Shown: piece after piece, positions 1 through 58,700 of the stretch
Position numbering within the stretch: the first letter of the stretch is position 1
Layout: each line of letters begins with the position of its first letter
NCBI GenBank assembly: GCA_000934665.2
Contig: KZ538055.1
Coordinates: forward strand, 1 to 64,000
Length of the DNA: 64,000 nt
From: Catajapyx aquilonaris
Taxonomy: Eukaryota
Reading direction: 5' to 3'
Notes under the pieces: model-generated
What the model was told of the DNA's origin: nothing
Databases searched by the model: none
The model's input: the letters and a program-made list of their open reading frames with translations, nothing else
Program-made: the position numbers and the translations under genes

Positions 1-220
1 GCTACCTGTAAACAGTGGCAACGCACGTGGCAACGACAGAAAGAACGCTAAGCACTCTCCACATGCCGATGTCCGAACACGCCCAGTTGCCAGGTAACGC
101 CAAAGTCGTTGTTTACACTTGTTATATGCTATTGTGTCCAGCACTGTACATAATAACTGTACTGGACGATTTGTGTGCAATGACAAAATATGTTTGTATA
201 GGCTGAAGAAATGCAATTAC

Positions 221-1154
221 CTTGAGGAATTCCGGTGGGTTCTTGAAACAGCCAACTCCAGGAGGAGTTCCAGTCAGGATGATGTCACCCGGAAGCAGCG
301 TACAGAACCTTAAAGATGATCAGATCAGTACGTAGCAATCAGTGCACTCGCTGGAGGCATGTTGACTTACTTGGAAATGAAAGCTACGATGGCAGGCACC
401 CCAAAGACCATCTTGTCAGTGTTTCCATCCTGCTTCATGACCCCATTGACCTTGCACCGGATGCCCAGCTTGTGTGGGTCTGGTATCCCTTCCTTGGTGA
501 CCACGGCTGGTCCGATGGGACAGAACGTGTCCATTGTCTTGCCCAGGAGCCACTGACCCCCGTTCCTTTGCAACTGCCATTCACGTGCGCTGACATCGTG
601 AGCCACTGTGTATCCAAACACGTAATCAAGCGCCTTGGATTCAGGCACATTCTTTGCTGCCTTTCCGATGACTATGGCCAACTCCACTTCCCAATCCAGC
701 TCGGATGTCAGGTCGGGATAGATCAAGTCATCTGAAGGTCCGCATATGGAGCTGGGGAACTTGTTGAATATCAGTGGCTCGGTCGGTATGGGCTTGTTCT
801 GTTCTTCGCAGTGGTCCTTGTAGTTCATCCCCACACAAACGACCTTGTCCGGTGATGTGATGGGAGCCAGAAGATGGACATCCTGATACTGCAGTTTGGG
901 TGCCGACTTCACCAAGCTGCCAAAAATCATGAAAACAGTTACGCTGCAAAACCCTGCCGTGTTGTGACTGACCTGTTGACCTTCCCCATGCATTCCCCAT
1001 TGTGCAACAGTTGGACCAGGCTGCTTGGTATGGCCGGGTCGGCCGCACACAGGTCAACAATAGGTCCACGCGGGCCATCCAGCTGCACCCCGACCTTAGG
1101 CGGACCTCCCTTAGACGTGAACTGCACAAACCGACTCATGGCCGTCCTCAGCAT
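221..1154 (-). CDS. FAHD2: Fumarylacetoacetate hydrolase domain-containing protein 2-like (3'-partial; coding exons 1154-973, 916-371, 308-221; final exon outside or at the edge of the window)
   Basis: The spliced translation gives MSRFVQF...[16 protein letters not shown]...[12 protein letters not shown]...[13 protein letters not shown]...[14 protein letters not shown]...[16 protein letters not shown]...[27 protein letters not shown], the FAA-hydrolase family motifs. GT-AG introns at 972-917 (56 nt) and 370-309 (62 nt) keep the frame, and there is a donor at 220. The start could be ATG 1154 or 1139. A likely 5'UTR intron lies at 1236-1165. Confidence 0.93.
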
Positions 1155-1236
1155 CAAGTGTCACCTGTAATTATCGGTATGACCTACAGTGATAATGCTG
1201 CAATGACGGTTATGTAAGTGTGTAAGTGCTACTAAC

Positions 1237-1620
1237 CTGAGTGTGCCTTCTAAGCTGCAGTGGGTGGGTCAGCTGCCAACAAGGCAGATTAAAAAGCAGG
1301 GTTGCCTTTCTAATCAAGTTTCTCCTTGACCTCTATTAGCAGTGGGGGTGGGACTAACCTGGTTCAAATTTCCCTCCAAAATGATACTATCGGTTGGTGA
1401 TACCGATAGTCCATTGGCGATGATTTCGGATAGGTCAGCATCGGTAGCATATGTGAGAGGCAGGCAAGGTGTGGAGTTGGGGGGTTGGTTTCTTATAAAA
1501 ACCGGTCTCCCCGGTGTGTGTCCGCCCCCTTTGCCTCTGCTGGTCAGTTGGGACAACACGCAGAGAAGGCCAGAAGAAGAAGAAGACACGTCAGCATCAG
1601 CGCCTTTGGACCAAGAGAAG
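1237..1620. promoter_or_regulatory. Compact divergent (head-to-head) promoter region between FAHD2-like and the aminopeptidase gene
   Basis: The start codons are under 500 bp apart and divergent. The plus strand has TATAAAA at 1494-1500 and an Inr-like TCAGTT at 1544-1549. A 9-bp inverted repeat ACTATCGGT/ACCGATAGT lies at 1386-1410. Confidence 0.6.
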
Positions 1621-4600
1621 ATGGGACGTCTTACCAGGTGACCACAACATGTCAACCACATGTTCAGAACCGACAAGTATTTTTAAGGAAAATTGTATTC
1701 ACTTGATCAGCCAAATTGTATGTCCGGTACAGCACAAAACAATTAGCATTGTAAGCCGCTGCCACCGCTTATGAATTGGTAATGTCCACTCCCTTTGTGC
1801 GGGATGGTACAATGTGTCCGCTGGTACGATGGCTTACATTTTATTCATGACCTTCAGAGGGGTGTTGCAGCTATTGCGGTGTCAATTTCTGGGATTGGAT
1901 TGCAGGAGTTTAACCTTGTTCAAGGTGAACTCGGGGAATTGTGGGTTCGCTTTTGGCCTTGTTTGCTGCGGGGAATCTGTAATGATAAGATTGATTTTTG
2001 GGGTTTTCCTGTTTTCACGTTGGGTTCTTCAGATTAATAATGATGTCGTTTGTCCCTCATAGAATGACATTAATCTGAAGAACCCAACGTGAAAACAGGA
2101 AAACCCCAAAATCAATCTTATCATTACAGATTCCTGTTCCTGCGTGCAGAAGAAAATGTTTGTTCAGAGTAATGAAAAATGTCTTTTTTTAAAGGATTAC
2201 ATGCCACATATTTTGTCGGTTATTGGGATGTTTCTTTGTGAATCTGTGTGTGACCATGATAATGACATCCAAGTTTTCATGTTATCCGCAGCAGCTGGTG
2301 ACACTTGTCTACTTCACTCTTATCAGGCATGTCCCATGACAGCAGATATCAAGGGGGCTGGTTAGACCGTGACTCACACTAGGATGATAATTGACTGCCA
2401 CATGGAAACTAATGACCTTCACTATCTGTTTTGACTTTCAAATGTAATTGAACTCCAAGTGCTAATAGGTATTAGTTCCTCAGCTGATAAATAGTAATGT
2501 GTTCCAATTATTGATAATTTTATGGGGATTTCCAAGTATCAATAATATTCCTTCACTTCAGCGTCATCTACAATAGCCTGGCTTTGCTTTCTGATTCCCT
2601 CCAATCCTCTCTCTTGTCCAGTGTGATGCCATGCTCGCTGAGCTCGTGCAATAATGTGGACAGTCCCAACTATGATGCCATTGTCTTGGTGGCATCATCT
2701 GTCAGCAAGCTTGCTGGACAGTTCGATGCCCTGAAACCTCATCTGGAGGCACAGAAGAAGGTAATTAATGAAGACGGTGGAGTTTTAAAGAAAAAAGTGA
2801 CATGCATGCTTTTTAAAATTTCAGATTGACGACAGCTTGGAGAAGGACGGCGCTGTGATTCCAGTGCCTCTTCCAGCCAAGCGTCTCGTCTATTCTCCAA
2901 CTGGCCCCTTGGTTCGGGACTATGACGATGTCCGACGCTTTGGTGAGGCTGCTGGAAAGGGTATCCGTCGTGCCCTTGCAGCCGGGGCCACCAAGCCAGT
3001 ACTGGCAGTGCAGCCTGACGGAGGCTTCCCGAAAGCCACACTGGTTGCTGTCCTTGGAGCCTTGGAAGCACTCTACGTGGTAAGTAGCTGACACCCTACA
3101 TGTCAATTGGAGTTAACTCCCATGTGTTTTTGCAGCCTCTGCAGTACAGGGAGGACGTCCCGAGCAAGAGCAAGAAAATCGAAGACCTTGCAATACTTGG
3201 AGCCGATGAACAATTGATCAATGTTGCATCAGCACTTGAGAGTGGAAGGTGAGGACAACCAGATATTTATCTAATGACCTCTAAATTGACCCTTTTTAAT
3301 TGCAGATATGTTGCACGTGACATTGGCGGTGGTGATCCTGAACGCATGACCCCTCTTGGAGTGGAGGAGTATGTGAAGAAAGTGTTTGCCGATACTAACA
3401 TCACAGTGAAATCCATCAGTGGCCGAGCCACTCTCGAGAAGGAGTATCCTCTCTTTGCAGCTGTAGATCGTGCTGCAAGTGGTCAGTACTGTTGGGTGTT
3501 AGTCCTAGGTTGCCATTGTTTCCATTGGCTGCATAAATATACACAGAGGCTACTACCTGCTGGCTCCTGCTATGCTGACGTACATTTTCTGCTTGTTTTT
3601 CAGTGATTGAGCGCCACCAGGGCCGCATCCTGAACCTAAGCTATGAGGGGAAAGGTCCCATAACCCAGACCCTGTGCTTGGTGGGCAAGGGAGTGACCTA
3701 TGACACTGGCGGTGCAGACATCAAGGCTGGAGGTGTCATGGCTGGGATGTCCAGGGACAAGTGCGGGTCTGCAGCTGTTGCTGGGTTCTTCCAGGTAACT
3801 CATTCGTTCCTCTGTCTCCTCGTTTCAATCTTTGCATGATAAACATGGCAACAATGTGTTATTTCCCCTAGGTGCTGAGTGTTCTGCAGCCTAAAGGTCT
3901 GAAGGTCCTTGGAGGCATGGCAATGGTTCGCAACAGCGTCGGGGAAAATTGCTACGTGGCAGATGAGATTATCACTTCCCGAGCAGGGATGAGGGTGCGC
4001 ATTGGCAACACTGACGCTGAGGGACGGATGGCCATGGCCGATGTGCTGTGCAATGTAAGTTGGTGACATTACAACATTGATGGGGAAATAGTTCACATCA
4101 CATATGGAATTCCATATTGAACAGATGAAAGAGCTAGCAGTGAAGGAAGTCAACCCTTACTTGATGACCATTGCAACTTTGACTGGCCATGCTGCCTTGA
4201 CTGCTGGACATTATTCTGTGAGTGATTGGTTGGAGAGCTGGTTAATCGAATTCGCATTGCTGACACTGTGCATATCCTTTGACAGCTGATAATGGACAAT
4301 GGCCCAGCCAGAGCAGAAGGCTGCTCCCACAAGATGCAGAAGGCAGGCGAGATCGTTGGGGATGAGTTTGAACTGAGCAGCATCAGACGTGAGGACTACG
4401 AATTCCACCGTGGCCAGACTGAGGGAGAGGACCTCCTGCAGTGCAACAATGCTCCCTCCTCCCGCACTCCCCGTGGACATCAGACACCGTCTGCCTTCCT
4501 CATCATGGCTTCTGGACTGGACAAGCACGGAAAGGACGCCACGAAGCCTCTGAAGTATTCCCACTTGGACATAGCTGGGTCTGCCGGGGATGTGCCTCAT

Positions 4601-17717: not shown

Positions 17718-17879
17718 NNNNNNNNNNNNNNNNNNNNNNNNNNNNNNNNNNNNNNNNNNNNNNNNNNNNNNNNNNNNNNNNNNNNNNNNNNNNNNNNNNN
17801 NNNNNNNNNNNNNNNNNNNNNNNNNNNNNNNNNNNNNNNNNNNNNNNNNNNNNNNNNNNNNNNNNNNNNNNNNNNNNNN
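17718..17879. other. Assembly gap (162 N) following a poly-G tract
   Basis: Run of N characters. Confidence 1.
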
Positions 17880-21096: not shown

Positions 21097-21110
21097 TAAT
21101 AATAATAATA

Positions 21111-21192
<82 letters not shown>
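21097..21192. repeat. (TAA)n microsatellite, about 32 units with one TAG interruption
   Basis: Directly visible; it produces the spurious poly-Tyr ORF 21096-21350. Confidence 0.97.
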
Positions 21193-21730
21193 GTAGTCGA
21201 TGCACAATAATTTTTCCCGAATCTTGATGCATCACGAGGCGTCACGAAGCAGCAGAAATACTCGAAAAAGATGCTAAAAATCGTACCGAACCAGGAAGTC
21301 ATTATACATTCCCCCTTTTTTATATACGTCATTGCATGCTGAATCCCCATTACATCACAGGATTACACCAGTAATCCCCCCTCCCCACCTCATGATCCCC
21401 TTCCCCTTTTGCCAAGATTACAAAATATTTATTTACGCCCACCCGCGTCACTATAGCCAGGGATGAGTCGCATCCACGTGCTTTTTGGTGACAACCAGAG
21501 AGGCAGCCAGTGCGTGTGTGTGAGAGAGTGTATCCCGTGAGAGGGAGTTTGAATAATTTTTTTTTTAAAGAAAAAGAAGGCATGGAGAGAGAGAAAAAAA
21601 AGCAAGCAAAGCAAGAGTGGGTTGTGGTTGTGGTCGGTTGGTCGGTCTGTCGAGTGAGAGGCGGGGGTTGGTTGGTCGTGTGTGTAGTTTGGAGGAGCCA
21701 GTAAGCGAGTGAGGCTCTCTGGGTCCGGTC

Positions 21731-22040
21731 TATAAGGGACGTGTGCGCGCCATACATACACGTGCACATACTCTGTACGCTCTCTTTTCATTTTTAATCT
21801 TTTCCACCCCCCTTAAAAAAAATTAATTCATCTCGGACCCTTCTCTCGCACCTTTTTTGATCCCTCAGGGAGCGATAGTACCAGCTGTAGTGGTCGGCCA
21901 GGTTTTCTTGGGGTCGGTGGGAGGGGTTGAGGTGCTTTTGGAGAGGGGGGGTGAGGGTAAGAGGGGGTAAGGAGGCAGGGGGGGGGGGGATCTCTCGGCC
22001 CTATTTAGCCGGTGTCTGCAGGTCTGCCACGGTCAGAGCG
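21731..22040 (+). promoter_or_regulatory. Candidate core promoter(s) of the tal/pri/mlpt transcript
   Basis: TATAAG at 21731. An alternative is TATTTAG at 22002 with an Inr-like TCAGA about 30 nt downstream (22033-22037), about 55 nt before smORF1. Which one is used cannot be decided from sequence. Confidence 0.45.
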
Positions 22041-22090
22041 ACGGGTCGTGTGCTCTGAGCCGGTACACCTTTCGCATCGTATACGCAACA

Positions 22091-22129
22091 ATGGGCGGGA
22101 AGACGTTAGATCCGACCGGGTTGTACTGA
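22091..22129 (+). CDS. tal: Tarsal-less/polished rice/mille-pattes micropeptide 1, MGGKTLDPTGLY (12 aa)
   Basis: ATG GGC GGG AAG ACG TTA GAT CCG ACC GGG TTG TAC TGA. It ends in the diagnostic LDPTGxY-stop motif and has a good initiation context (CAACAATGG). Confidence 0.93.
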   Translation: MGGKTLDPTGLY

Positions 22130-22156
22130 AGTTTTGGGACAAGAGCATAGCTGGTG

Positions 22157-22201
22157 ATGTCCAAGATGCCCGAGACGCTGGACCCGACGGGACTGTACTG
22201 A
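22157..22201 (+). CDS. tal: Tarsal-less/polished rice/mille-pattes micropeptide 2, MSKMPETLDPTGLY (14 aa; 11-aa MPETLDPTGLY if started at ATG 22166)
   Basis: ATG TCC AAG ATG CCC GAG ACG CTG GAC CCG ACG GGA CTG TAC TGA. This second LDPTGLY-stop ORF starts 27 nt after smORF1, and all differences from smORF1 across TLDPTGLY* are synonymous. Confidence 0.93.
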   Translation: MSKMPETLDPTGLY

Positions 22202-22238
22202 GAGAGCAGGTTGCCTGACTTCCTCCAAAGGGGACGAG

Positions 22239-22697
22239 ATGGCCACGGACGTATGGGTGTACCATCCGGAAGTGAGTTGGGCCTGCAGCACCTGCGATGA
22301 CCTGTTGTTCCCAGATGAGCAGGGAACTTCTTCTTCAATAGCCGGTGAGCATAGTATAAGAAGTGGAAGGGGGGAATGCTGGTCGTTGACCCTGTACTTC
22401 CGCGTTGTCACATGTCCCAACCAGCCGGTGTCGCTGGTCAGCCCAGGGCGGGTCGCACCCAGGGTTGGAAGGGAGCTGGGGCCGCCCCAGGGTGCTGGGT
22501 TGGAACTAGGGGCCGGTCTGGGGGCAGGGGCAGATGGGGCAAGGGCAGGGCAGTGGGAATGGGAGGGGTCGCGGGCCAAAAGCTGGCAACCGCGTCTTAT
22601 ATGCTGCCTTGTGTTTCTTCCTGGTTCGAATCGTACCTCCCAGCCCTTGCCCGTTTACTGGGTCACAGCTGCTCCAGCCCCGACCATTGCCAGGTAG
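22239..22697 (+). CDS. Possible third, motif-less ORF (152 aa) on the tal transcript; translation uncertain
   Basis: The ATG has a good context (GAGATGG) and lies 37 nt after smORF2. The ORF ends before the poly(A) signals. No recognisable homology; the central part is G-rich and low in complexity. Confidence 0.25.
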   Translation: MATDVWVYHPEVSWACSTCDDLLFPDEQGTSSSIAGEHSIRSGRGECWSLTLYFRVVTCPNQPVSLVSPGRVAPRVGRELGPPQGAGLELGAGLGAGADGARAGQWEWEGSRAKSWQPRLICCLVFLPGSNRTSQPLPVYWVTAAPAPTIAR

Positions 22698-22859
22698 ATG
22701 GTCAGTCGCAGAAATACCAAATTTGCAAGTGGATTCGCGTCAAAATGAACATTTTTGGTGGGGGTCCACACCACTGTTTTGGGCTCAGAAATGCGCCAAA
22801 ACGCCAATGCGCCAAAAAGACGTGTCTTTTACCTTCACCGATACGATTTAAGAATTATA

Positions 22860-22917
22860 AATAAAGTGATTTTTGATTGGTGTTGTTCTAGGCTTCGTAG
22901 CAAATAATGTGAATAAA
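22860..22917 (+). terminator. Candidate polyadenylation signals of the tal transcript
   Basis: AATAAA at 22860-22865, followed by a GT/T-rich tract, and again at 22912-22917. This implies an mRNA of about 0.85-1.2 kb. Confidence 0.6.
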
Positions 22918-23045
22918 TCAGTCAGTTTGCGAATTTCTGTAATTCTTGAGCGGGTAAAGCAGGATTTGCGCAAAATCATGGGCTCGACTTTAGACATGTT
23001 AATGGTTCAAGTAGTGACACTGTCATTGAAAAATAGCCTTTATAG

Positions 23046-23105
23046 GTCCAGTCATGATCGTAAAAGCAAATAAGGGTGTATTTCATTTTACGATCATGAC
23101 TGGAC
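23046..23105. repeat. Perfect 20-bp inverted repeat forming a 60-68 nt hairpin
   Basis: GTCCAGTCATGATCGTAAAA (23046-23065) pairs with TTTTACGATCATGACTGGAC (23086-23105); inner AAATA/TATTT pairing leaves a 6-nt loop. Confidence 0.9.
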
Positions 23106-26100
23106 GTATGTGAATTGCTGAGAGTGAATATTCGGGGGGTTTGGAGTAATTGCACGTGTTGAAATGGGCAACAGGTGGTGCAGTGCTCCAACTTGCGGGA
23201 TGTTGTTCATCCTAGCAACCTGTTTAATAAGGAAGCAACAATCTGGTTAAAATGGTTGCTCGATCGTTGGACTTGTGCCTGCCCCATATTGTTTGATTTG
23301 TGTGACTCCTTCGATTGGTGGCCCCCCCAATCACTGAATGAATGGTCTTGTGCGATTGCTGACTGCCTCCTTGGGTCTTGGCCGGTCATTCCCCTCGCCC
23401 TCGATCTCTCCTCGAGTGTGTATCACGTTCTTGAGACACTATCACACTTCTTGCACCATTCAGCCATTTTACCCTTGGCCAGCAGCCCCCTCGGATGTGG
23501 GACATGAATGTCGCTCGTTATTGTTTCAAAGCGTGACTCTACTTTTCGCCATTGATGGCACACCGGGGGGGAGGGTGTTGCGTAATTGACTTCACGGTGA
23601 CGTAATCCTCCAAGAGAGGTCAGTGGACCAAATCTGGCCTGGAGAAGAAAAGAGGAGTCCCTTTTTGCGGGGGAAGCCGTACCATTGACCTTTCAAGTGG
23701 TGGGTTTCGTCGAGCTTGCAAAATAATACTCTCGCGGCCAGACACATGACAGCCTTGGGGAGACCAGCTGAAAGTGAAGCTCACCCGGTCTACTATACTC
23801 TAACAGGGGTATGCAAGGCAGCTAGCTAGTTTGGGTTGGTTGAGAGATAGCACGAGGCAGCCTCAAAAAGTGAAAGTCCTGGAGGCCCCCCCCCCCCCCT
23901 TTTCTTCAGGGAGAGAGCTTCTGGACGGATTAGATCATCTCGATGCCCGATCGGTCCAGCTTCCTGTTCATTGCAAGGGCAGAGGAGCAGGCCAGCCAAA
24001 ATTAATGGAAATGCAGGCCGGACGACAATGCACAAATTTGCAATATTTAAACTGGGGCGTCTTGCTGCATTGGGACTCATAAATATTAAGTTCGCACAAT
24101 TTGTATTCAGAATTTTTTATGGGTCTCCCCACGCCAATTACTCGAAACGTAAACAAATTAATATGCTTCACTCATTCATAACTTCATTAATTGCATCCTT
24201 CTGAAAACTTGAAGTTTGTGTTTACAGTTTACTCGGCAGTTGATCGTAGCAGCATTTAAATACTTCATTTTCATTTAATGCCCTTTAAAATCCTGTTGAC
24301 TATTCATGCGCAGTACGGTTCTCTCTCTCTCTTTGTGTGTGTGTGTATGCAAGGCGATTACCGGTATCGGGTCTTTTTATCTCACATCCGGTTGATATAA
24401 CATGGGCCATTTTTGCTTTCAAATTTTTCCAAGAGGCTTCCAACTGACCCCAGCACGAAGCATCTGGCTACCGGAATTTTTCAAGTTTTCCTAGATGCAA
24501 ATTGGCCACGCTAAAATACAGTATTAAAGTTTCCTCGCTTGGCACATGATACCTTCCTCTTTTTATCCGGATTTTTTTTTTCGAACTAAAAAAAAAGTGG
24601 CGTCGTGAAAACCAGTGCAAGTGTCGCCCCATCATTCAAACACCCCTCTTTCCAGAATTGGTTTCTAGAAAACTGATTGTAAAGTAGGTGTTAACGGATC
24701 CCCTTGGGAACTTGGGGGATGTGCATAATAATGGATGGACTAAAAAAAAGCATCAACCTTTTCCTCTCAAAAAAATTTGAGGGGTCCTATGAGGTCATAA
24801 AGGATCAGTGAGACCGACGGAACAGGTTCCTTTTTTAAAGAGGGGGGGGGGGGTTAGGACAATTTTTTGGTTCCCTCCTCCTCCTCCTCGACAAGTAGGT
24901 TGGAACTCGATGTCAACTGGAAAATGGCGTAATAAACCGAGCAACCTTCTGCTGGGATTACAAAACAGTGCTCGAGCCTGCTAACCGGATGTGTGAGTTT
25001 TAAGATAGGGCTTGCTTGGGAGGGAGAGAGAGGTGGTGGTCACCCTGGTTTGGGGTCGAGGTCACAGAGGTTGCTTCCGGGTGTCCTTAAGTTTCGGCCA
25101 TATCCTTGAGACCCGATCGTGATTAGGTTCATCGCAGGACTATTAATACCTTAGTCATGCTGGATTGGCGATATCTTCGGGGCCGATCGCTTCTATACAG
25201 GTATATGGGTGGGAAAATTGCGATTTTTATTTTGCGTATTGGTAGCTGCTAGTGCTGGCGCAGGAAGTGGCCAAAAAATTCCATCGAACCAGTGACTCCC
25301 GGCGTTACGCCGTAAGTAATGTCGCAGCGAATTTTGCGGGTAAGGAAGTTGTGGGCTGTCGATAAGAGTGTATTGGACTACCGCCAAGGACGTTATGCAA
25401 ATGAGGATTGGAAAACCGAACAAATTAGAGTGGGCACCCGGGGCTTACCTGCCCTTGAGGGAGAGAGAGCCACTGACCATCCGCGTTCGGTTTTCTTCGT
25501 CTGTGACCCACTTTGGCCTGAATGTCCCTGACAGCTCGGCAAAGCAGATCAAAACATTGGCTTATTATTATTACAGGTCGGGGCGAATGAAGAATGCAAC
25601 TAAATAATGGCCTCCATGAAGGCTGCCATATACGACCTCTGTATATACAGGGCAGGGTCGAAGGTTAGGTCAGCGCCCCATTGGTGGCTGGGACGTACCA
25701 TTCTGTATAGTTTTGTCGGAATTTTACGAGATCCCTTTTTTGGGGCTCGATCTGAACGACCTTCCCAACGGGGACGTGCACACACATTACGTGCCAAAGC
25801 ACCCAAAAGAAAAAGAAAATTCCAGCCACGCGAGGTCGGATCTAAGGTCAGGGAAGGCCCCTGAGTGACCAGCAGCGCTATTCTTGGTTGGGGGGGAGAT
25901 GTTTAAAAAAAAAAAAACGTCAGGATTGTGGATGATTTGGATGATTGCCCCCTGCTTGAGGCCGTGGCCCCTTATCCAATCTAGGGGAACGTGAAGCCAT
26001 GCCAGGCGCTCAAGGGCTAATCTCCGCTAACTCGATCCGGATCCAACTTTCAATTGACACGAAACCGTTTTTTTTAAAAAAAGAAAACACGAATAAAAGG

Positions 26101-34748: not shown

Positions 34749-37700
34749 TTAATCGTCTCTGAATCGGAAGTCTAGGGCGGTGCTGAGCTTCCTCCAGAAC
34801 CGGAGCAGAGACATGTTGAAGGCCTCCTCAGGCAGGTACGGACAAGGCATGTCGCACGTACCCTCTCCGGAACCTTGCTCCATTGCTCGAAGGTACCGGT
34901 AGAATCGACTGGCCTCCTCCGCTTTCACTTGGGCTCGGTTCACCCTGAAAGGACGGACCAAGCACAATTACATCAGCACTGGACTCTCCCCCTCTCAAAA
35001 CCCCCAAAAACAGCCAGAAGGAAAAAGTGACCATTCCCTCTCTAGCCCCCCTCCTCAAAAAAAAAAGGACCCCCTCCTTCGTTTCCTCTTTTCAAGGCTG
35101 CAAAGGTACCGAAATTTTTCTTTGACACCACCCCACCCACCCCAAAACCCCAAGAGAGAGAGAGAGAGAGAGAGGTCTTCGCCCTCTTGTTTGTAACCCT
35201 GACCTTCAAGGGAGGGAAGAAGCCGGGACAAGACCTCGGAGAAGAAGAATTGGGGGAACCCTCCTCCTCCAAAGAGGAAGGAAGGAAGGAAGGAAGGAAG
35301 AGGAACCTTCCTCAAGTTCGAGCGGGAAAACATCTCCAGGCACTCACTCCAGACGCTTGAAAATTATCTCGCTGATTGGGTAGTACTTCTCCGGATCCAC
35401 AGACATCTCGCATATTATACGCTGCTGGCAGGTGTCTTCCGGAATCTGAAAAAAATGTGAATCCCAGAATTTTTTAAAAAGGAGACAATATCCATAATAG
35501 AGACAAGTTGACCTTGATCGTCAGTCAAATATGTATAGGAAACCTGCCAGGTCATTTGACTTGCGTAAAATGAGAGTGTAGCCAAAATATTTTTAGAATA
35601 TTCGCTGAGTGAGAGTGACTGGTTGCGGTTCTTGTGACTTCTCGACATGTGGACAAGCTGGTAAAGTGCACCAAAAACAATCCTCATGCTTCAAGGCCTT
35701 CCCCACAAGAATGGGGTTACAAGTGCTACAGGGTGGTCCTGTAATGCATAACAAAACGGTGTACACTCTCGCTCTCCATCTGCCCAAATGTCCCAACTGC
35801 TTTTGGAAGAAAAAAAGAAAAAAAAATGTGGGGTCAACGACCGGGCAGAGTGGTTGGTGGCAAAGGTGCAACATCGTCTGCTTCTGGAGGAGAAGAAGAG
35901 AGAGAGACCCCCTTCGACCAATGAATGGGGGCTCACAAAGCAAAAAGATAGTCATCCTTATCTATACACAGAATAATAAGGATAGAAAGAGGAGGAGGGG
36001 TGTTGGACAGATATTTTTTTTGTCAATATTTTTTTGGGGGAGGAGTGTGTGTTGTTGTTTTTTAAAATATCTTGGAGGGGGAAGCTTCTCAAGTTCTGTC
36101 ATGGAAAAAAAAGTGCGTGACTGCAAGTTCTCCCTCGAAGATGTAAGATTATCGGCTTTTTTATCCTGCTAGGATTAATAGGCCTGTTTCCACAACTGCG
36201 TTTTTATTCAAATGTATGTGTAGCACCCGGGAAATTTTTTTACACTGGATAATATATCGAAATAAAAATCCACGATCAGATTTTTCGGTCCAATATTATA
36301 GACAGCTGTCAATTCGAAAACGGCCGATTTCCCAGAGAAATGTTATAATTATCCACTCAAAAACTGATAAGGCTCGAAACCCCAATTACCAGGCGAGGTC
36401 GCTGGTTGTAACCAGTTTTATGACCGTCACTTGTCGCTTAAACTATCATTAGCACCTCTTAAGAGTGGTAGCGTAGGCTTTCAAGTCGCCCGTAATTCAT
36501 TGGCGGGGGCTTTTCGAAAGGAGAGAAAAAAAAAGTTTAAACAATTAGGCGTTGATTTCATTATCCCTGGAAGACTTGTCATAATTTCTTGCCAGCTCGA
36601 AAAGAGCCGTGCACTCTGCCAAGGACTCGAGTGCAACACGGTCACAAATAAAGCGAGTTATTGTTCGGGTGACGTGTCCGGTTGTCACCACTCTTTGTGG
36701 GTGATTGGTTGGGGGGTGGTGAAACAGAAAGGCTAGAGAGAAAAAGGTGGGTGGTTTTTAGTCGGTCGGAGTGGGTTGGGTGATGGCCTGCTGTTGTGAA
36801 GAGAAGGTCTTCCGAGGCCGTGGTTTAAGAGTGAGAGCGAAAAAAGGAGGAAGGTAACATACACACAAAAGGAAACCAAGAACTACTAGGGACCGAATAT
36901 CTCAAGGGCGAGTTGGGCAAGGTCAAAGGTTCCGATTGTTTGCGAGCTGTTATTCAGACAGGTGAATTTCTGACCTGCAGGTAGTCGAAGTAAGTTGTGA
37001 GTCTGTCCAACTCCACAGTGTACGAGGGGTCGTCGTAGCTGTCCACAGGGGGGTCAGAGGTCACGGGCTGGACGTCCCGTCTGTATCGCTTGCTGAAGTT
37101 TGGTAGGATAAATGACAGCGGGATTGTCACCAGCAGACCTGCAATAATTATTTTCTTTCCGTCAAGTAGTGCGTGTCATTACACCTGTGTAGGAGTCTTT
37201 CAAAAAATTGTCCTTGGCCGATCCTGTAATAATATTGATGTCACCGGCTGCCCACGTTATTGAAGCTGACACCCAGTCGAAATTAGGTTTTTCCCAGTCC
37301 AGCATGGTTACATGCAGAGATGTATCTTTTGCAGCATCAGAGAAGGTTAACCGGCTGACTGGTGCTACCGGACCGGAGTTTTTTTATTCTTTTTTTGCAA
37401 GCTGTGATTCGCCAAAGACCTTGCCAAAAGTCCTCCTCTCACTCGACTGGGACAGGAATTATTGCAATAGTGCAACAAACACCAGGCGGTGAAGCATTGG
37501 CCGCCCACATTACAAGTACCTACATTTCCGCCATAATTGCTTTGTATGTACAGTGGTTATGAATGGCCGCGGCCTTGGAAGGAACTTTTTTTTTTGCAAC
37601 TCGTAACTCAGTGCACAATAATGCATCGGGTGAATGAAGCCTACCAATGTCAATCGGCGCCTCGGTGTTGAAGTAGACGAACCGCTTTTGACGGTGACGA

Positions 37701-48677: not shown

Positions 48678-51600
48678 TCATTGATCATGGATGGTGGTGG
48701 ACTCGACGACCACCGGTGGCGTCTTCTGGGTGCCATTGTTGCTTCTGTGTGCGAATGTGCCGGAGGATGCTGGAAGGACCACGGACGATGGACCATTGTC
48801 GCGTCCGTTCCGTCGTCCGTCGCGTCCGTTTCCGATCAGCTCGCTCAGCTGGTTGTAGGTGTTGACCATCGGAAGGTTGGTCAGCTGCTCCGTGTCGGTC
48901 GGACACGCAGGGTACAATGAGAGGCATTCCTTGCCTCCCTGGCCGTCCTTGGCTGCCTTCATGTACTTGAAATACCGGAGAACCTGAGGACTGTTGCTCA
49001 CCGGACGCTTCAGCTCGTTCGGGTGCCTGGTCAGATAAAATGGACTGGATTTAGTCACTCGGCAATAATTAATCAGGAGGCGGAGAAATTATTACCTGGA
49101 CACCTGTGTACCAAATCATTGTTACAGTGATAATAATAGCACTGTCCAAATGAGTCCATATTTCAAGTGGAGTTGTAACCCTCGGCCTTCCTCAATGTTG
49201 CGTCATTGTATAACTGAATTATATAACAATGGGGGGCTGCAACTTTTGTATTAAAAAGCATTAAAGAGGGATGTGGAGGGTGAACTGGACCTTGCATGTG
49301 AACCATATTTCGCGATGCATGAAATTAGGTCTGCATGACACCACGGTACATGACTGTACCACTTTGCTTCACATGTTTGATGCGCAAGAAATAAGACAAG
49401 AAAATTAAAGAAGAGACAATGTCGGTGCGGGGACCCGCGTTTTTCTATGTGAATCCCCCCCCAATAAGAAGTAAGGGACATTTCGGAATCTGCTTACGTG
49501 AGGGTCTCATTCGAGTGCTTTAGTCACGGGTCATTCTTGTAGGTCACTTTTGTGGCCAAGTAATTTTCGCATTTATTATTTTTTGGCAAATTTTTTGGAT
49601 GGGCAACTCGTGGTCTGTAAAGAGTCTCGTCTGTCTTGGTGAGGTAATACGCAACACTAGTCATCCTGGCATTGAAGCATTAGTCCCTGTCTGGGGTGAA
49701 TTAACTCTTAATTACAGAGGACGCTTCTCTCAACACTGCTCTTCACGCTATCTGCTGCTGTTCAACCTCTGAGCAATATTTTCAACTGTGAAGTACGTGG
49801 CAGATAAATCTGAAACAAACGGTTCCGAAAACTCTGCGAAACACTCCTGAGAGAAGTGAATCTCATGTTAGAAATTGAATAGCCTGCCAATGTGCAATGA
49901 GAAGTAAGCAGTTTAGTGCTACATATGGTCATATTTGCATTAATTATTTCATGTGGTAGTGTAAATCAAATATTGCTTTGCTCCGGTAAATTCCGGTTTG
50001 CAGCTTATTGAATAGCCATGCGCTACACATTGTTGCGAATTTTAAAAAGGCAGCCGACTTACCAGGAGGTATAGGGTGAGAATTGAGATTGCAAACAACT
50101 TTTGTACCAAACACTGCGGTACTTTGCTGTACAGAAGGCTGTTACTTTTGGCCTGGAGTGTTACATTAGCATAGCCCGTTTTGTACCGCAAACACTGAAA
50201 GAATTATATGCCAGCTCATGCACTGGATTATTGCAATGGAATGTATATACCTGCTAAGTTGTGCACTGAGGAGATTGCTGTACGGGGCGTACTTGACTGG
50301 GAACTTGTAGATGCTGCATACCGCCCTCTCCCTGCATCCTTCCTCTTTGAATCCAAGGTGTGAGAAGATGGAGTCTATCCTGGACAAAAGGGGGCTGTAG
50401 AATGGGTCGAAGGAGTCAATGTGCAGCATCGACGGAGGGATCAGCTTGAATCCTTCCTCCTGCTGAGGCTGCTGGTGCTGGGGCTTGGCGTTGGCGGTCA
50501 GCAGCGGGAGGGTCAGGCTGGTGGGACCCTGGACGCCTCCGACGACGCCCCCAGGGCCCCCGCCTCTGACCTTCTCCATGAACTTGGCCAGGTTGGCCAG
50601 GTCATCCGGGCTGCGCGGAGGGTGATTCCTGACGTTTGGATTAGCAATGCCGAAGAACCCGGAGTCAATGGCCTGCTCGTTGATGTTCGTCCCGGACGTC
50701 TCGTGGTAGTCCGGATAAGGATGGGCGTAGTTTGGGATCTGAGGGCGTCTGTTCTTGGCGGCCTGCTGCTGGGCTGCGGCTGCGGCTGCGGCCACTGCGG
50801 CCAGGTTGTTGTGGAATGGGGAGTGGGCCTGCGGGTTGTGGTGAGTGGCCGCCGCAGAGAGGGGCCACCCTGCGTGGTCGTCGTATGCGTCCAGTCCTGC
50901 CCCGAGGCCGCCCCCGTGCAGAAGGTCCCCGTACCCTGCCAATGGGTCCTCGTAGTCTCCCACCCCTGGAGACATCAGGTCAAACAGGCTCTTCAGGGGT
51001 CCTCCGCCTCCAGAACCTCCGAACCAGTTGCCGAACATCATGGACTTGAGGCCGAACAGGATAGGGGTCATCATGCCCTTCATGGCCAGGAATACCAGGC
51101 CTATCGAAATACCCGCCACGAAGCTAGGTCCGGATGATAAGGCCAATTCTGAGGAAATAATTATTTTCATTAAACTTCACAAAATAACTTTTGGATGTCA
51201 CCTCAGGAAGGTGAGGTATTCACGTTCAACAATTTAAGGACTGGCGACAAAAATATTGTAAATGAAGTGCCATCAGTGCCCTTAATTCCTGAGAGTGTTG
51301 CAAGTCGTTACAGTCCAGCATCATGTAATGACTGCTGCATGACACGATTCACTGAGAACAATGCCGACTGCAATCACGTTTTGTCCGAGGGCAGTTTGGA
51401 TTCACTTAATAATTAATTACGTGGTGCTAATTACTCGACTCGACAATGTCACCTTTTGAGACCTCTGGAAACAGGTTTGGTTGCCTTTTAATAAGAAAAG
51501 ACAGGATAATAGTTTTTTGATGCCTCCAAGAAAATAATTCAACCTGACCTCTGGTTTGCAGCGAAACCAATTAAAAATCAAGTTGTATTACGGGATGCAC

Positions 51601-54600: not shown

Positions 54601-55778
54601 GATTGTCTCTAACAGTGAAGCTTATATGGAGTGCAAACATTCTTATCAATTATAATATTTGTTATAAGAATCTCATAATTATGCCATTGCTCCACTCTAC
54701 ATGTTATTAGACCAAGGATTCAACCAATCCTATCAATTCATTAATTAACAGTAAATGTAAATAAAGTAAAAAAAAATATTTGGTCGAAATCTACCTGCCC
54801 TTAATATACTGTTTTGCCCTCAACAAGATATTTCTGGCTTCTACTTAGATACGCCCAATATTTCACATGTAAATCACATCCCTGGGCATTCTTGTTAGCC
54901 ACATTGTTGCCATTTTAAGTGTGCCCAAGTACGCTTCATACGGGAAGTTTACGCAAAGGCGACGTGCCGCATTTTAAACGTCCTGAATGCTGCCGGTTTG
55001 CGAGGTTGACGAAAGACCCACTTTTACTAGTAACACAAATTATTACTTTTTCAATTATATTCCCTGACAAAAAGCCAATAACTTGTAGGGCAACGAGGCA
55101 TGAAATATGGCACGTGGTCCATTCGAGGATGGCACCAACCTACTTTGGCCAGCACTTTCACCGGGTCCTCGTGTTGCTCTACACACACTTTAACACAGTG
55201 TCATCTCGTGGAGGTGTGGCTTTATACTCACTGAACTCATCTTTGAAGAATGGGACCTTGACCCGGAGGTGGAAGCCAGGGTCGATCATGGTCCTGGCCA
55301 TCTGAGGCAGGGCGAGTCCGACCGATGCGTTGACCACCCTGGGCACCTGCACTTTCAGCACGTGTGTGCCCAGGAACTCCTGGATCCTCCTGAACACCAG
55401 CTGGTCTATGGTGTCACCGTGGTTCTTGAGGAACTCGGGCAGAGGGTAGCTCATGGTCCCGCGACCCCTGCCCGTAGTCACCTGCTGCTGGTCATCTTGC
55501 ACTAATGACACGAAGCTGCCCAGCGGGATCGTGTCCCTATCCAGGAAGTCCGAGATCATGGAGGCCAGCACCACCTTCTTGCAGAAGAAGGTCTCCTGCT
55601 TTCCTTCTCCCGAGCAGGACTTGCTGGTGGCCCTCTGCAGGTACCTGAGCGTGCCGTGAGCTGACTTGCCATGGTCTCCGCACAGGTGATGACTATTCAG
55701 CTTGCACTTGACGTACCTGGCCGGTACCGGTGCCAGCAGGAAGAGGCCCAGGAACAGTAGAGATAATACGCGAGACAT
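48678..55778 (-). CDS. Osiris family protein, Osi17-like, 597 aa; exons 55778-55232, 51148-50251, 49026-48678
   Basis: Two phase-compatible GT-AG introns (phase 1 and phase 2). Features in order: signal peptide MSRVLSLLFLGLFLLAPVPA; two-Cys region CSGEGKQETFFCKK...DFLDRDTIPLGSFVSLV; DUF1676-like DQLVFRRIQEFLGTHVLKVQVP; hydrophobic segment FVAGISIGLVFLAMKGMMTPILFGL; C-terminal FDPFYSPLLSRID...CRERAVCSIYKFPVKYAPYSNLLSAQLSR...RYFKYMKAAKDGQ...CLSLYPAC, which matches my recollection of the Osi17 C-terminus. A small additional exon inside intron 1 cannot be excluded. Confidence 0.8.
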
Positions 55779-58700
55779 GTTGGCACCATGCCGGTCATCA
55801 CTGATATACACCGATCGGCACCGGTACCGGCGCGGGCAACAGCAGCAGCAGCCTCCTTCGCACTTCCATTCCGACCGCGCTCCTCGACTCGACTGGTTTG
55901 AAGTCTTCTCGGCAAGAAGGCCTTACCTGTTGGAAGTGGTGGAGGAGGCAGGGAGGTGGGGGTGGATAAAAAAGGTATGTAGGATGAAAACTAGGCCAAG
56001 GCACAAGCCGGCTGCTGCCTGCCAGCCAACAGCCTGTATCATCCAACTGGATGGCTAGAGAGTATAGCAAGGTTGTCCAGGGCTAAGGTGCCCAGCCAAC
56101 ATGTCATGGATATGTGTCAGCAGAGTCTCCGCTCCGTGAAATCTCATCACGGAGACGTCGCTGTCACGTGCAAAAGGTCACCTTTACATATCAAATGCTC
56201 ATTTCTTTTTTTTTAACAAAAAAAGAGGGGGGCGTGGTAGGTATATAGGGAGAGGCGACCAACATCAGAGGAGGCGGATGAATTTAGATGCGAATGTATG
56301 AAGATATTGCTTGCTCCGAGGTAATATCTGCAATGCTAATCGTGGTCGTAAATATGACCGCCAGAAAGAAGAACCGGTTCCGCACCTGTGGTCTGATGCA
56401 GTGTTAAGTTGTAATCGTCAAATTCTTAAGACGGTTAATGACAGAGGTGATGGAAAGGATTCGATTTGAAGTTGAGATTGCCAGCTGCAAGTGACCGGCT
56501 TGGTGTGCAAGTGCAACTTGACCTCCTTGCTTCTCTCTCATGTTGTTCAGCTCACAGTCAGTGCAATACTACCTTACAGTATGTACGAATTTTTTATTAT
56601 AAGAAAATTACATTTGCAAATTGAAACGTATGGTATGTATTGTAAATCAATGTAGGTGGCCTAACAAGTAATAAGTGAAATAGTAAATATTACATCGCTG
56701 ATAGGCCTACCTACATACGTTACAGACACACGCGAATGATTTATTTTGAAATATGCGACTTTTTTCTCGTGCAGCTTTAGAGAAACAAACAAACGAATTG
56801 CATAAACTATAAGTACAGGGGCAGCAAAACAGCTTTCTTCATATTAGAAATGATTCATTGCTCAAATTTTTCATGAATAATGCTGGACTGTAGTTGTCTC
56901 AGAATTCATTAAGGGTATAAAATTGTTGCTAATTTTGAGTTGCCGTTTTACTGAAAATATTTTTCATATAATGTTTTATGGGAAATACCATATACACGGA
57001 TAATGAATGAAAGTTGCTTAACCCGCATTGTACTTCCGCATATCGATAGTTTTTATATGACAAAATTCGAGCCCCCACCCCCCTAGTGATACGGTCCAAA
57101 TCATTTGCTTATCACAATACTGTACTTTACAAACAGATGATCTACAGCTGGGCCACATGGCCACATAGCTTACATGTTCAACCGCAGACGTCAAACACTT
57201 CCATCAATAATATTGAAAATCTAATGCAAGTAGAACAGAAGCCCAGAGTAATAAATTAGGAATTAAATCACGATTTTGCAGTAGGAGTAATATAGTACCA
57301 CTTGTTCAGTACAAGTATTGCGTGTGTGTCAGTTTAGGGTAATTTATGCTCGACTTTAGAGAAATAATTTTGCAATGTTGCGACATATTTTCTTCCTTGA
57401 CATAAGTTACCAAATTTGCAATATGGGTGATAATGATTGGAAAATGATTTAAACTAAACTAAGACTTGATAGGCAGAACGATCAGTCACAAAATGAGTTT
57501 GGCATTTTGCAATAGAATTCTTGACACGTATGTTCCAATGATAAAGTCAGTAGTCTACCATAATAGAAAATTAGGCCCATATAAACGCTACAAACCAAAA
57601 TTTAGAGTTATATAAAAAACTATTCCACTGTGACTCGGAAAGTTCTTGCAATAAATTCTGAATAGCTGTCTTATTACTTATAGTTTAAGCGACAGTTAGT
57701 CTCGCAATTAACACCATGAAGTGGCGGTAACTTGACAAGATGAATGAAGAGTGCAGCTGCTTACCTGCGACACAGACGGAATGTTTCCCAGAATATGCCG
57801 AGATCTCAAAATTCCTCACCACACTCGAGTCACGGCACAAAAGACACGAACGGAATGCGAGTCTCACGACATCTCGACATGAATATATATACGCGTGTGT
57901 GTATGTGGTAAAAGGACCCAGTTCTGGACTTTAGCCAAAAGGGAATAAGGATTTTTGTGGGGGTGACCTTTTAGGATGAAGGGCAAGCCCTACTTCATTG
58001 TCATCGAGCCAACTCGAACTTTGTCACCGGGTCACGATAACCACTCCCAAAAAGCCACTTCCGCTCGCAGATTTTTTTGGGGGGTGCAAATTCGGTCAAT
58101 TTTTGCAATGGCGGCCACTGGGGCACCCAACTGGACAATGCCAACTGGCAAAAGAAATATGCAACGTTACTTTTTTTTGTGTGCGTAATATCATTGCACA
58201 AAAATTGCCAAAATTTCAGTCACGATTGACCTGATTGTTCGGTGCATCAGTCAAGTGTGAGACGCATCTTTTCGCAGGTGCGTTTTGAGTGGTCCGAATC
58301 TTTTTCTGCCACATTACAGTTAATATTTTGGGCTTTTTTTCCCGGGCCCATTTCCAAGGATATGTGAAACGAGACGAAGCACCGGTACCGTTTTTACGAG
58401 GGTGTTTCAGGTATGGCCAAGCCACGCGCGGAATTTCGTGGGATAGGCTTGCAATTTTTTTTGCAAAAAAATATTACTAGAACATGTCGCAAATAAGTTG
58501 ACAACACCTGGACCAGTGTTGACGACTTCGCCTCGAGGTTGAGTAACGGTAACGGTCTGATGCTAAAAGCACCGTCAGGCAATAACTTCCTCTCCGCCAA
58601 ATTGTCATTGCAATTTTTTTTGCACTGTCTGGGCTATTATTTTCATCTGGAAGGCCCACGTCCATAGGTTGAACCAGGTTCAAACCCCTCTCCCTTTCGG

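Follow-up and report, generated by a model that had tools for sequence, protein, structure and literature searches.

Positions 22091–22201 on the plus strand of the window, meaning the whole 64-kb stretch of DNA that was analyzed, were assigned with a probability of about 0.85 as the coding core of a tarsal-less/polished rice/mille-pattes (tal/pri/mlpt) orthologue. The gene would be short, probably intronless, and polycistronic, with two type-A small open reading frames (smORFs). The identity of the locus as tal/pri/mlpt is well supported by its sequence, from which we also infer that the locus is functional. As a developmental gene with micropeptides as its sole products, tal/pri/mlpt is a textbook case, and it is routinely overlooked by gene finders and open reading frame (ORF) tracks. 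The same family assignment had been made in an earlier note on this DNA, and it is backed by the motif with its stop codon, the tandem smORFs, the silent-only divergence of the two motif copies, the start contexts, and the anatomy of five further loci.

The two smORFs lie within 111 nt of the plus strand and share one reading frame. SmORF 1 (22091–22129, plus strand) consists of 12 codons followed by TGA (22127–22129) and is translated as MGGKTLDPTGLY-stop. SmORF 2 (22157–22201, plus strand) consists of 14 codons followed by TGA (22199–22201) and is translated as MSKMPETLDPTGLY-stop. Both peptides end in LDPTGLY, and the TGA stop codon follows directly in each case. The plus-strand spacer between the two ORFs (22130–22156) is 27 nt in length; its in-frame translation is S F G T R A stop L V, with TAG as the stop codon. 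An inner in-frame ATG of smORF 2 at 22166 would give the 11-residue peptide MPETLDPTGLY. SmORF 1 starts within caacaATGg, which places A at −3 and G at +4. The corresponding contexts are ggtgATGt for the start codon of smORF 2 and caagATGc, with A at −3, for the inner start at 22166. A purine is found at −3 in the start contexts of the locus. When the sequence was read again, the coordinates, both peptides, the 27-nt spacer, and the in-frame TAG given in the earlier note were all found to be exact.

DNA contigs from two runs (X1 and X2) cover positions 21500–23500 and contain zero letter differences inside the smORFs. The sole difference of these contigs in the interval is one extra G in the poly-G run at 21977. 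Because the two runs are probably the source of the assembly itself, this agreement was not counted as independent support. A further run with the same species label (X5) gave no coverage of the interval. Several long poly-G and poly-C runs are present in the smORF region, for example around 21977.

The hallmark of the family is LDPTGXY, and the type-A ORFs are described as 11–32 residues in length, with several per mRNA that are translated by re-initiation (PMC1852585). The motif was taken as LDPTG(L/Q/T)Y followed by a stop codon, as defined in PMC1852585 and 10.1101/667022. A six-frame search of the 64-kb window found two LDPTGxY-stop sites and no DPTG site other than these two. The base composition gives a chance expectation of 0.00012 LDPTGxY-stop sites per window and of approximately 1e-11 for two such sites within 100 nt.

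The two copies of TLDPTGLY-stop were compared codon by codon. Five of the nine codons (codons 2, 3, 5, 6, and 7) differ, with the pairs TTA/CTG, GAT/GAC, ACC/ACG, GGG/GGA, and TTG/CTG, and all of the differences are silent. The earlier note had reported five differing codons with silent changes only, and the recount agrees, giving six base changes within those codons. When six random substitutions were placed in the 27-nt TLDPTGLY-stop stretch, 12 of 200000 trials gave silent changes only, and with a transition bias 45 of 200000 did. Across the window and five distinct organisms identified in metagenome contigs, LDPTGLY-stop is kept in 17 of 17 motif copies. The same 17 copies use six Leu codons, four Pro codons, four Thr codons, four Gly codons, both Asp codons, both Tyr codons, and all three stop codons. 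Selection acting on the peptide, and not on the nucleotide sequence, is shown by this comparison of codons. For the two copies in the window, divergence by silent changes alone is proof of past selection and not of present function.

The metagenome loci were obtained by scanning a collection of metagenome contigs with back-translated TLDPTGLY followed by TAA or TGA. Eight loci were found, and seven of these contain tandem ATG-initiated smORFs, each ending in LDPTGLY-stop. The remaining locus (L004), with a single FDPTGLY and no start codon, was rejected as a member of the array type; it looks like a chance hit. Nine of the 15 motif copies in the metagenome loci were not required by the search pattern. 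Loci L001 and L002 are 99.9% identical and loci L003 and L005 are 99.7% identical, and the seven loci therefore represent five distinct organisms (L001/L002, L003/L005, L006, L007, and L008). The numbers of smORFs for these five organisms are, in ascending order, 2, 2, 2, 3, and 6, and the smORFs range from 10 to 27 codons when the shortest start is taken for the second ORF of L001. Degenerate copies of the motif, with one or two mismatches, were not found on either strand of any locus. Judged from the motif, the metagenome loci are presumably arthropod tal genes.

The metagenome loci resemble the window in that tandem M...LDPTGLY-stop smORFs are found behind an ATG-free leader. They differ in the N-terminal residues of the peptides, with the exception of PETLDPTGLY, the tail of smORF 2 in the window, which is also found in ORF1 of L003/L005. 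A second ORF of the form MDPP(K/Q)KLDPTGLY is common to three of the five metagenome organisms. Most of the metagenome smORF starts have a purine at −3. The ATG-free leaders before the first smORF are 456, >501, 266, 483, and >226 nt in length for the five loci, where the symbol > denotes a leader that is cut by the end of the locus. No ATG gap on the same strand exceeds this leader in four of the five loci, and in the other one it ranks second. Non-overlapping spacers between the metagenome smORFs range from 43 to 202 nt, and the 27-nt spacer of the window is the shortest of those compared. At the nucleotide level, the window and the metagenome loci are similar within the smORFs only, and tblastx of the window against the five tal-like loci gave no similarity outside of them. 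Such a restriction is to be expected if only the peptide is under selection. It is a specific anatomy, and not the motif alone, that is common to the window and the independent loci. In the flanks of the metagenome loci, 71 of the 87 ORFs of at least 55 aa were compared with Pfam, those overlapping the smORF arrays being left out; none reached the cut-off, and two matches fell below it. Recognizable coding neighbors were not found within 1.5 kb of the metagenome loci.

In the window, the ATG-free leader spans positions 21585–22090 of the plus strand. The nearest ATG upstream begins at 21582, 509 nt before the start of smORF 1, and this gap is the second longest among the 1178 plus-strand ATGs of the window. 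When the leader stretch was shuffled, it was free of ATG in 1 of 20000 shuffles. Since the leader contains no ATG, the AUG of smORF 1 would be the first AUG of any transcript that starts there. SmORF 1 is thus reachable for scanning ribosomes, with no upstream AUG in the leader and a usable start context. Accessibility to scanning ribosomes is a criterion of our own, drawn from the re-initiation model of PMC1852585, and does not belong to the published definition of the family. Another long ATG-free stretch on the plus strand (34849–35455) ends in "M-stop" and contains nothing of interest. A (TAA)32 microsatellite is located at 21097–21192, approximately 0.9 kb upstream of the smORFs.

Within the leader, the sequence TATTTAG (22002–22008) and the sequence TCAGAG (22033–22038), both on the plus strand, were picked out by eye against consensus motifs and are presumably TATA-like and initiator-like elements, respectively. 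Positions 22002–22038 are a tentative candidate for a core promoter, which would give a transcript start near 22035 and a 5′ leader of approximately 56 nt. Palindromes of the ecdysone-receptor type are not enriched: with at most one mismatch to the consensus, three sites are present in the 64 kb, versus 2.54 expected.

Two AATAAA sequences on the plus strand (22860–22865 and 22912–22917) were read by eye as poly(A) signals. The region 22202–22917 (plus strand) is probably a 3′ untranslated region that ends at one of these two signals, and the predicted ends would therefore give an intronless mRNA of approximately 0.85–0.9 kb. Approximately 130 nt past the second AATAAA, a hairpin is found at 23042–23109 (plus strand) with 31-nt arms that are 90% complementary and a 6-nt loop. 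Its calculated RNA fold has an energy of −40.3 kcal/mol and a z-score of −8.6, which was equaled by none of 200 shuffles. The arm of the hairpin has no second occurrence in the window and no match in Rfam. Candidate identities for the hairpin are a precursor of the miRNA type, a small mobile element of palindromic structure, and a structure resembling a terminator.

The surroundings of the locus were characterized by comparing all 378 stop-to-stop ORFs of at least 62 aa and free of N with Pfam. The Pfam cut-off was reached by five of the 378 ORFs, all of which are located at 125–4063 or 55182–55922. Two exons of a FAHD2-like fumarylacetoacetate-hydrolase gene are found on the minus strand (125–319 and 370–1053), and two exons of an M17 leucyl-aminopeptidase gene are found on the plus strand (3579–3836 and 3872–4063). 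These two genes are arranged divergently, and the positions of the Pfam matches imply introns of at most approximately 60–80 nt. The remaining match is a DUF1676 (Osiris-type) ORF on the minus strand (55182–55922), with 39.6 bits versus a cut-off of 24.3 and an E-value of 7.2e-10. The smORF locus thus stands alone in approximately 50 kb with no recognizable protein-coding exon, a setting that fits an intergenic micro-gene. Rfam families were not detected in the window.

For the FAHD2-like exon, 7928 relatives were found, and the best identities among the matches listed are 64–70% (bivalves, echinoderms, a copepod, and a springtail). A tree of 33 rows was calculated from the window and 32 rows chosen from 120 listed matches (23 named and 9 other top matches). 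The row of the window appears on a long branch, weakly beside the molluscs (SH-aLRT 81) and apart from the copepod and springtail rows, and the tree is uninformative as to the lineage of the host.

A HMMER search with the DUF1676 ORF (55182–55922) against 1.84 billion representative proteins returned 12 relatives at E ≤ 0.001, the best with 33% identity. DUF1676 itself is carried by 10 of these 12 relatives at E ≤ 0.001, as weak matches, and seven of them reach the Pfam cut-off. A word search with the ORF gave no match. By eye, the translation contains a hydrophobic N-terminus and Cys pairs. Osiris proteins are described in PMC3284338 as having a signal peptide, a two-Cys region, DUF1676, a transmembrane domain, and an AQXLAY motif. 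The AQXLAY motif was not found near the ORF in the six frames, where later exons may escape recognition. PMC3284338 describes the Osiris/DUF1676 family as restricted to insects, and notes only weak similarities in ESTs from springtails and crustaceans and in Daphnia and Ixodes. The ORF is an outlier among DUF1676 sequences and may belong to a divergent and little-sampled branch of DUF1676.

The longest open frames of the window are located at 50169–51176 (minus strand, 336 aa) and 50364–51134 (plus strand, 257 aa), where they overlap on opposite strands. Neither frame matches a Pfam family, and the region may be a compositional island of low stop-codon content or an unrecognized gene. One assembly gap of 162 N is present at 17718–17879, and a single N occurs at each of 7870 and 47413.

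The layout of the locus was compared with those of known family members. PMC1852585 gives the ancestral tal gene two type-A ORFs, the number that crustaceans and primitive insects also have. Two to five copies of the peptide per gene are reported in PMC8435553. On the basis of layout and tail, the present locus is like the tal gene of Daphnia pulex and those of crustaceans and early-branching insects, for which two type-A smORFs with an LDPTGXY tail are described (PMC1852585). The mlpt gene of Tribolium castaneum is likewise polycistronic, and three of its four smORFs contain LDPTGLY, the same variant that is found here (PMC4612599). It differs in having three motif ORFs and a fourth, longer ORF, whereas two motif ORFs are present here and a further conserved ORF was not found.

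The tal gene of Drosophila melanogaster contains 11-residue type-A ORFs ending in LDPTGXY-stop on a short mRNA for which re-initiation was proposed (PMC1852585). It contains four type-A ORFs (1A, 2A, 3A, and the 32-residue AA with two motifs) together with a weakly conserved ORF-B, and no reading frame similar to ORF-B was recognized in the present locus. The motif variant reported for Drosophila is LDPTGQY, whereas LDPTGLY is found here in peptides of 12 and 14 (or 11) residues. In hemipteran mlpt, from Rhodnius prolixus and others, two LDPTG smORFs of 11–14 residues are carried on one mRNA (10.1101/667022). The hemipteran genes differ in having a conserved ORF of approximately 80 aa, smHemiptera, with the region GHR(Y/N)WMTHLPLSRP (PMC8435553); a conserved longer ORF was not found here. 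The earlier note had laid stress on the presence of only two motif peptides, which turns out not to be unusual. The two-peptide layout is not a novelty, because PMC1852585 describes it as the ancestral state and two motif peptides are also reported for Hemiptera (10.1101/667022). Figure S1 of PMC1852585 or Supplementary Table 1 of 10.1101/667022 may already list the species or identical peptides.

Three other explanations of the smORF pair were weighed against a tal/pri/mlpt orthologue. The locus might be a silent or recently inactivated paralogue, either a duplicate or a retrocopy, of the true tal/mlpt gene, too young for its ORFs to have decayed. Independent duplications of the whole tal gene are reported for Bombyx and Lutzomyia (PMC1852585), which shows that additional copies can arise. 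However, the two ORFs retain their start codons, stop codons, and motifs, the start contexts are favorable, and the 509-nt ATG-free leader, a feature common to the five independent loci, is preserved. A degenerate third copy, a poly(A) tract, or a target-site duplication was not found around the locus, and its isolated position in approximately 50 kb free of recognizable exons fits a developmental gene with large regulatory flanks. An inactivated paralogue is on these grounds unlikely. A chance origin of the pair, as short ORFs in non-coding DNA whose tails happen to be similar, has a negligible probability. Very short ORFs are abundant in any sequence, but this abundance is set against the expectation of 0.00012 LDPTGxY-stop sites per window (~1e-11 for two within 100 nt), the 12 of 200000 trials with silent-only divergence, and the recurrence of the same type of array in seven of the eight motif matches elsewhere.

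The smORFs might also be regulatory upstream ORFs of a downstream protein. Long ORFs that begin with ATG do follow directly on the same strand, one of 152 aa from 22239 and one of 162 aa from 22376, both inside the probable 3′ untranslated region, and hemipteran mlpt mRNAs carry an extra ORF of approximately 80 aa (10.1101/667022). However, a word search with the 152-aa ORF returned no homologue, and neither ORF matches a Pfam family. The stretch that contains them is 52% GC and open on both strands, with minus-strand ORFs of 182 and 124 aa, as is typical of chance ORFs. In addition, tblastx against the five tal-like loci is empty outside the smORFs. The 152-aa and 162-aa ORFs were consequently rejected as coding sequences and treated as chance ORFs. 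A purely regulatory role would also leave the conservation of the smORF peptides unexplained, which makes the proposal of upstream ORFs very improbable. The preferred assignment of 22091–22201 is thus as the coding core of a tal/pri/mlpt orthologue.

A working model for expression of this tal/pri/mlpt orthologue can be proposed. Transcription would start within the ATG-free leader, perhaps near 22035, and one short intronless poly(A) mRNA would carry both smORFs. Scanning ribosomes would initiate at the strong first AUG (22091), synthesize the 12-residue peptide, and terminate. The second peptide would come from those ribosomes that re-initiate, or leak through, at 22157 or 22166, 27–36 nt downstream. 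With so short a spacer, and with A at −3, the inner AUG (22166) could plausibly serve as a start. Re-initiation at smORF 2 may be inefficient, because the 27-nt spacer is shorter than the 43–202 nt found elsewhere. If the locus works as it does in Drosophila and Tribolium, its peptides would bind Ubr3, an E3 ligase, and activate it. Ubr3 would then ubiquitinate the N-terminal repression domain of Ovo/Shavenbaby (Svb), and the proteasome would trim Svb to its activator form. The Svb activator would drive differentiation of the epidermis and patterning of the legs and, in many insects, segmentation. For the present host, we infer transcription, translation, re-initiation, and every step that involves Ubr3 and Svb. 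The Ubr3-dependent switch of Svb from repressor to activator by the peptides is described in PMC6428570, and the mechanism given in the earlier note agrees with that description.

The match of the DUF1676 ORF may point to an arthropod lineage for the host. The neighboring genes, considered jointly with the range reported for tal, make a pancrustacean host with no close annotated relative the most likely one. The gene is described as conserved among Pancrustacea (PMC8435553), mlpt is reported as absent from chelicerate and myriapod genomes (10.1101/667022), and the origin of the gene is presented as an open question in PMC4612599. Full-text literature searches returned no report of tal/pri/mlpt outside Pancrustacea. 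A host outside Pancrustacea (a myriapod, a chelicerate, or another ecdysozoan) is decidedly unlikely, since mlpt was not found in chelicerates and myriapods according to 10.1101/667022 and DUF1676 is essentially restricted to insects according to PMC3284338. In its favor, the FAHD2-like exon stands apart from both arthropod rows of its tree and the DUF1676 ORF is an outlier of its family.

The earlier note had proposed that a non-insect arthropod host would bear on the age of the module. This holds for a host outside Pancrustacea, but not for a crustacean, which would add little because Daphnia has been known as a carrier of tal since 2007 (PMC1852585). If the host were not a pancrustacean, the locus would be the first tal/pri/mlpt locus beyond insects and crustaceans, and the Mlpt–Ubr3–Svb switch would predate the pancrustacean ancestor. 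With an insect or crustacean host, the locus is a routine member of the family. It provides a further data point for the ancestral two-ORF layout and enables correct annotation of the host genome. The combination of the motif, its stop codon, and an ATG-free leader (226–509 nt or more in six independent organisms) may serve as a detector of the family in unannotated DNA.
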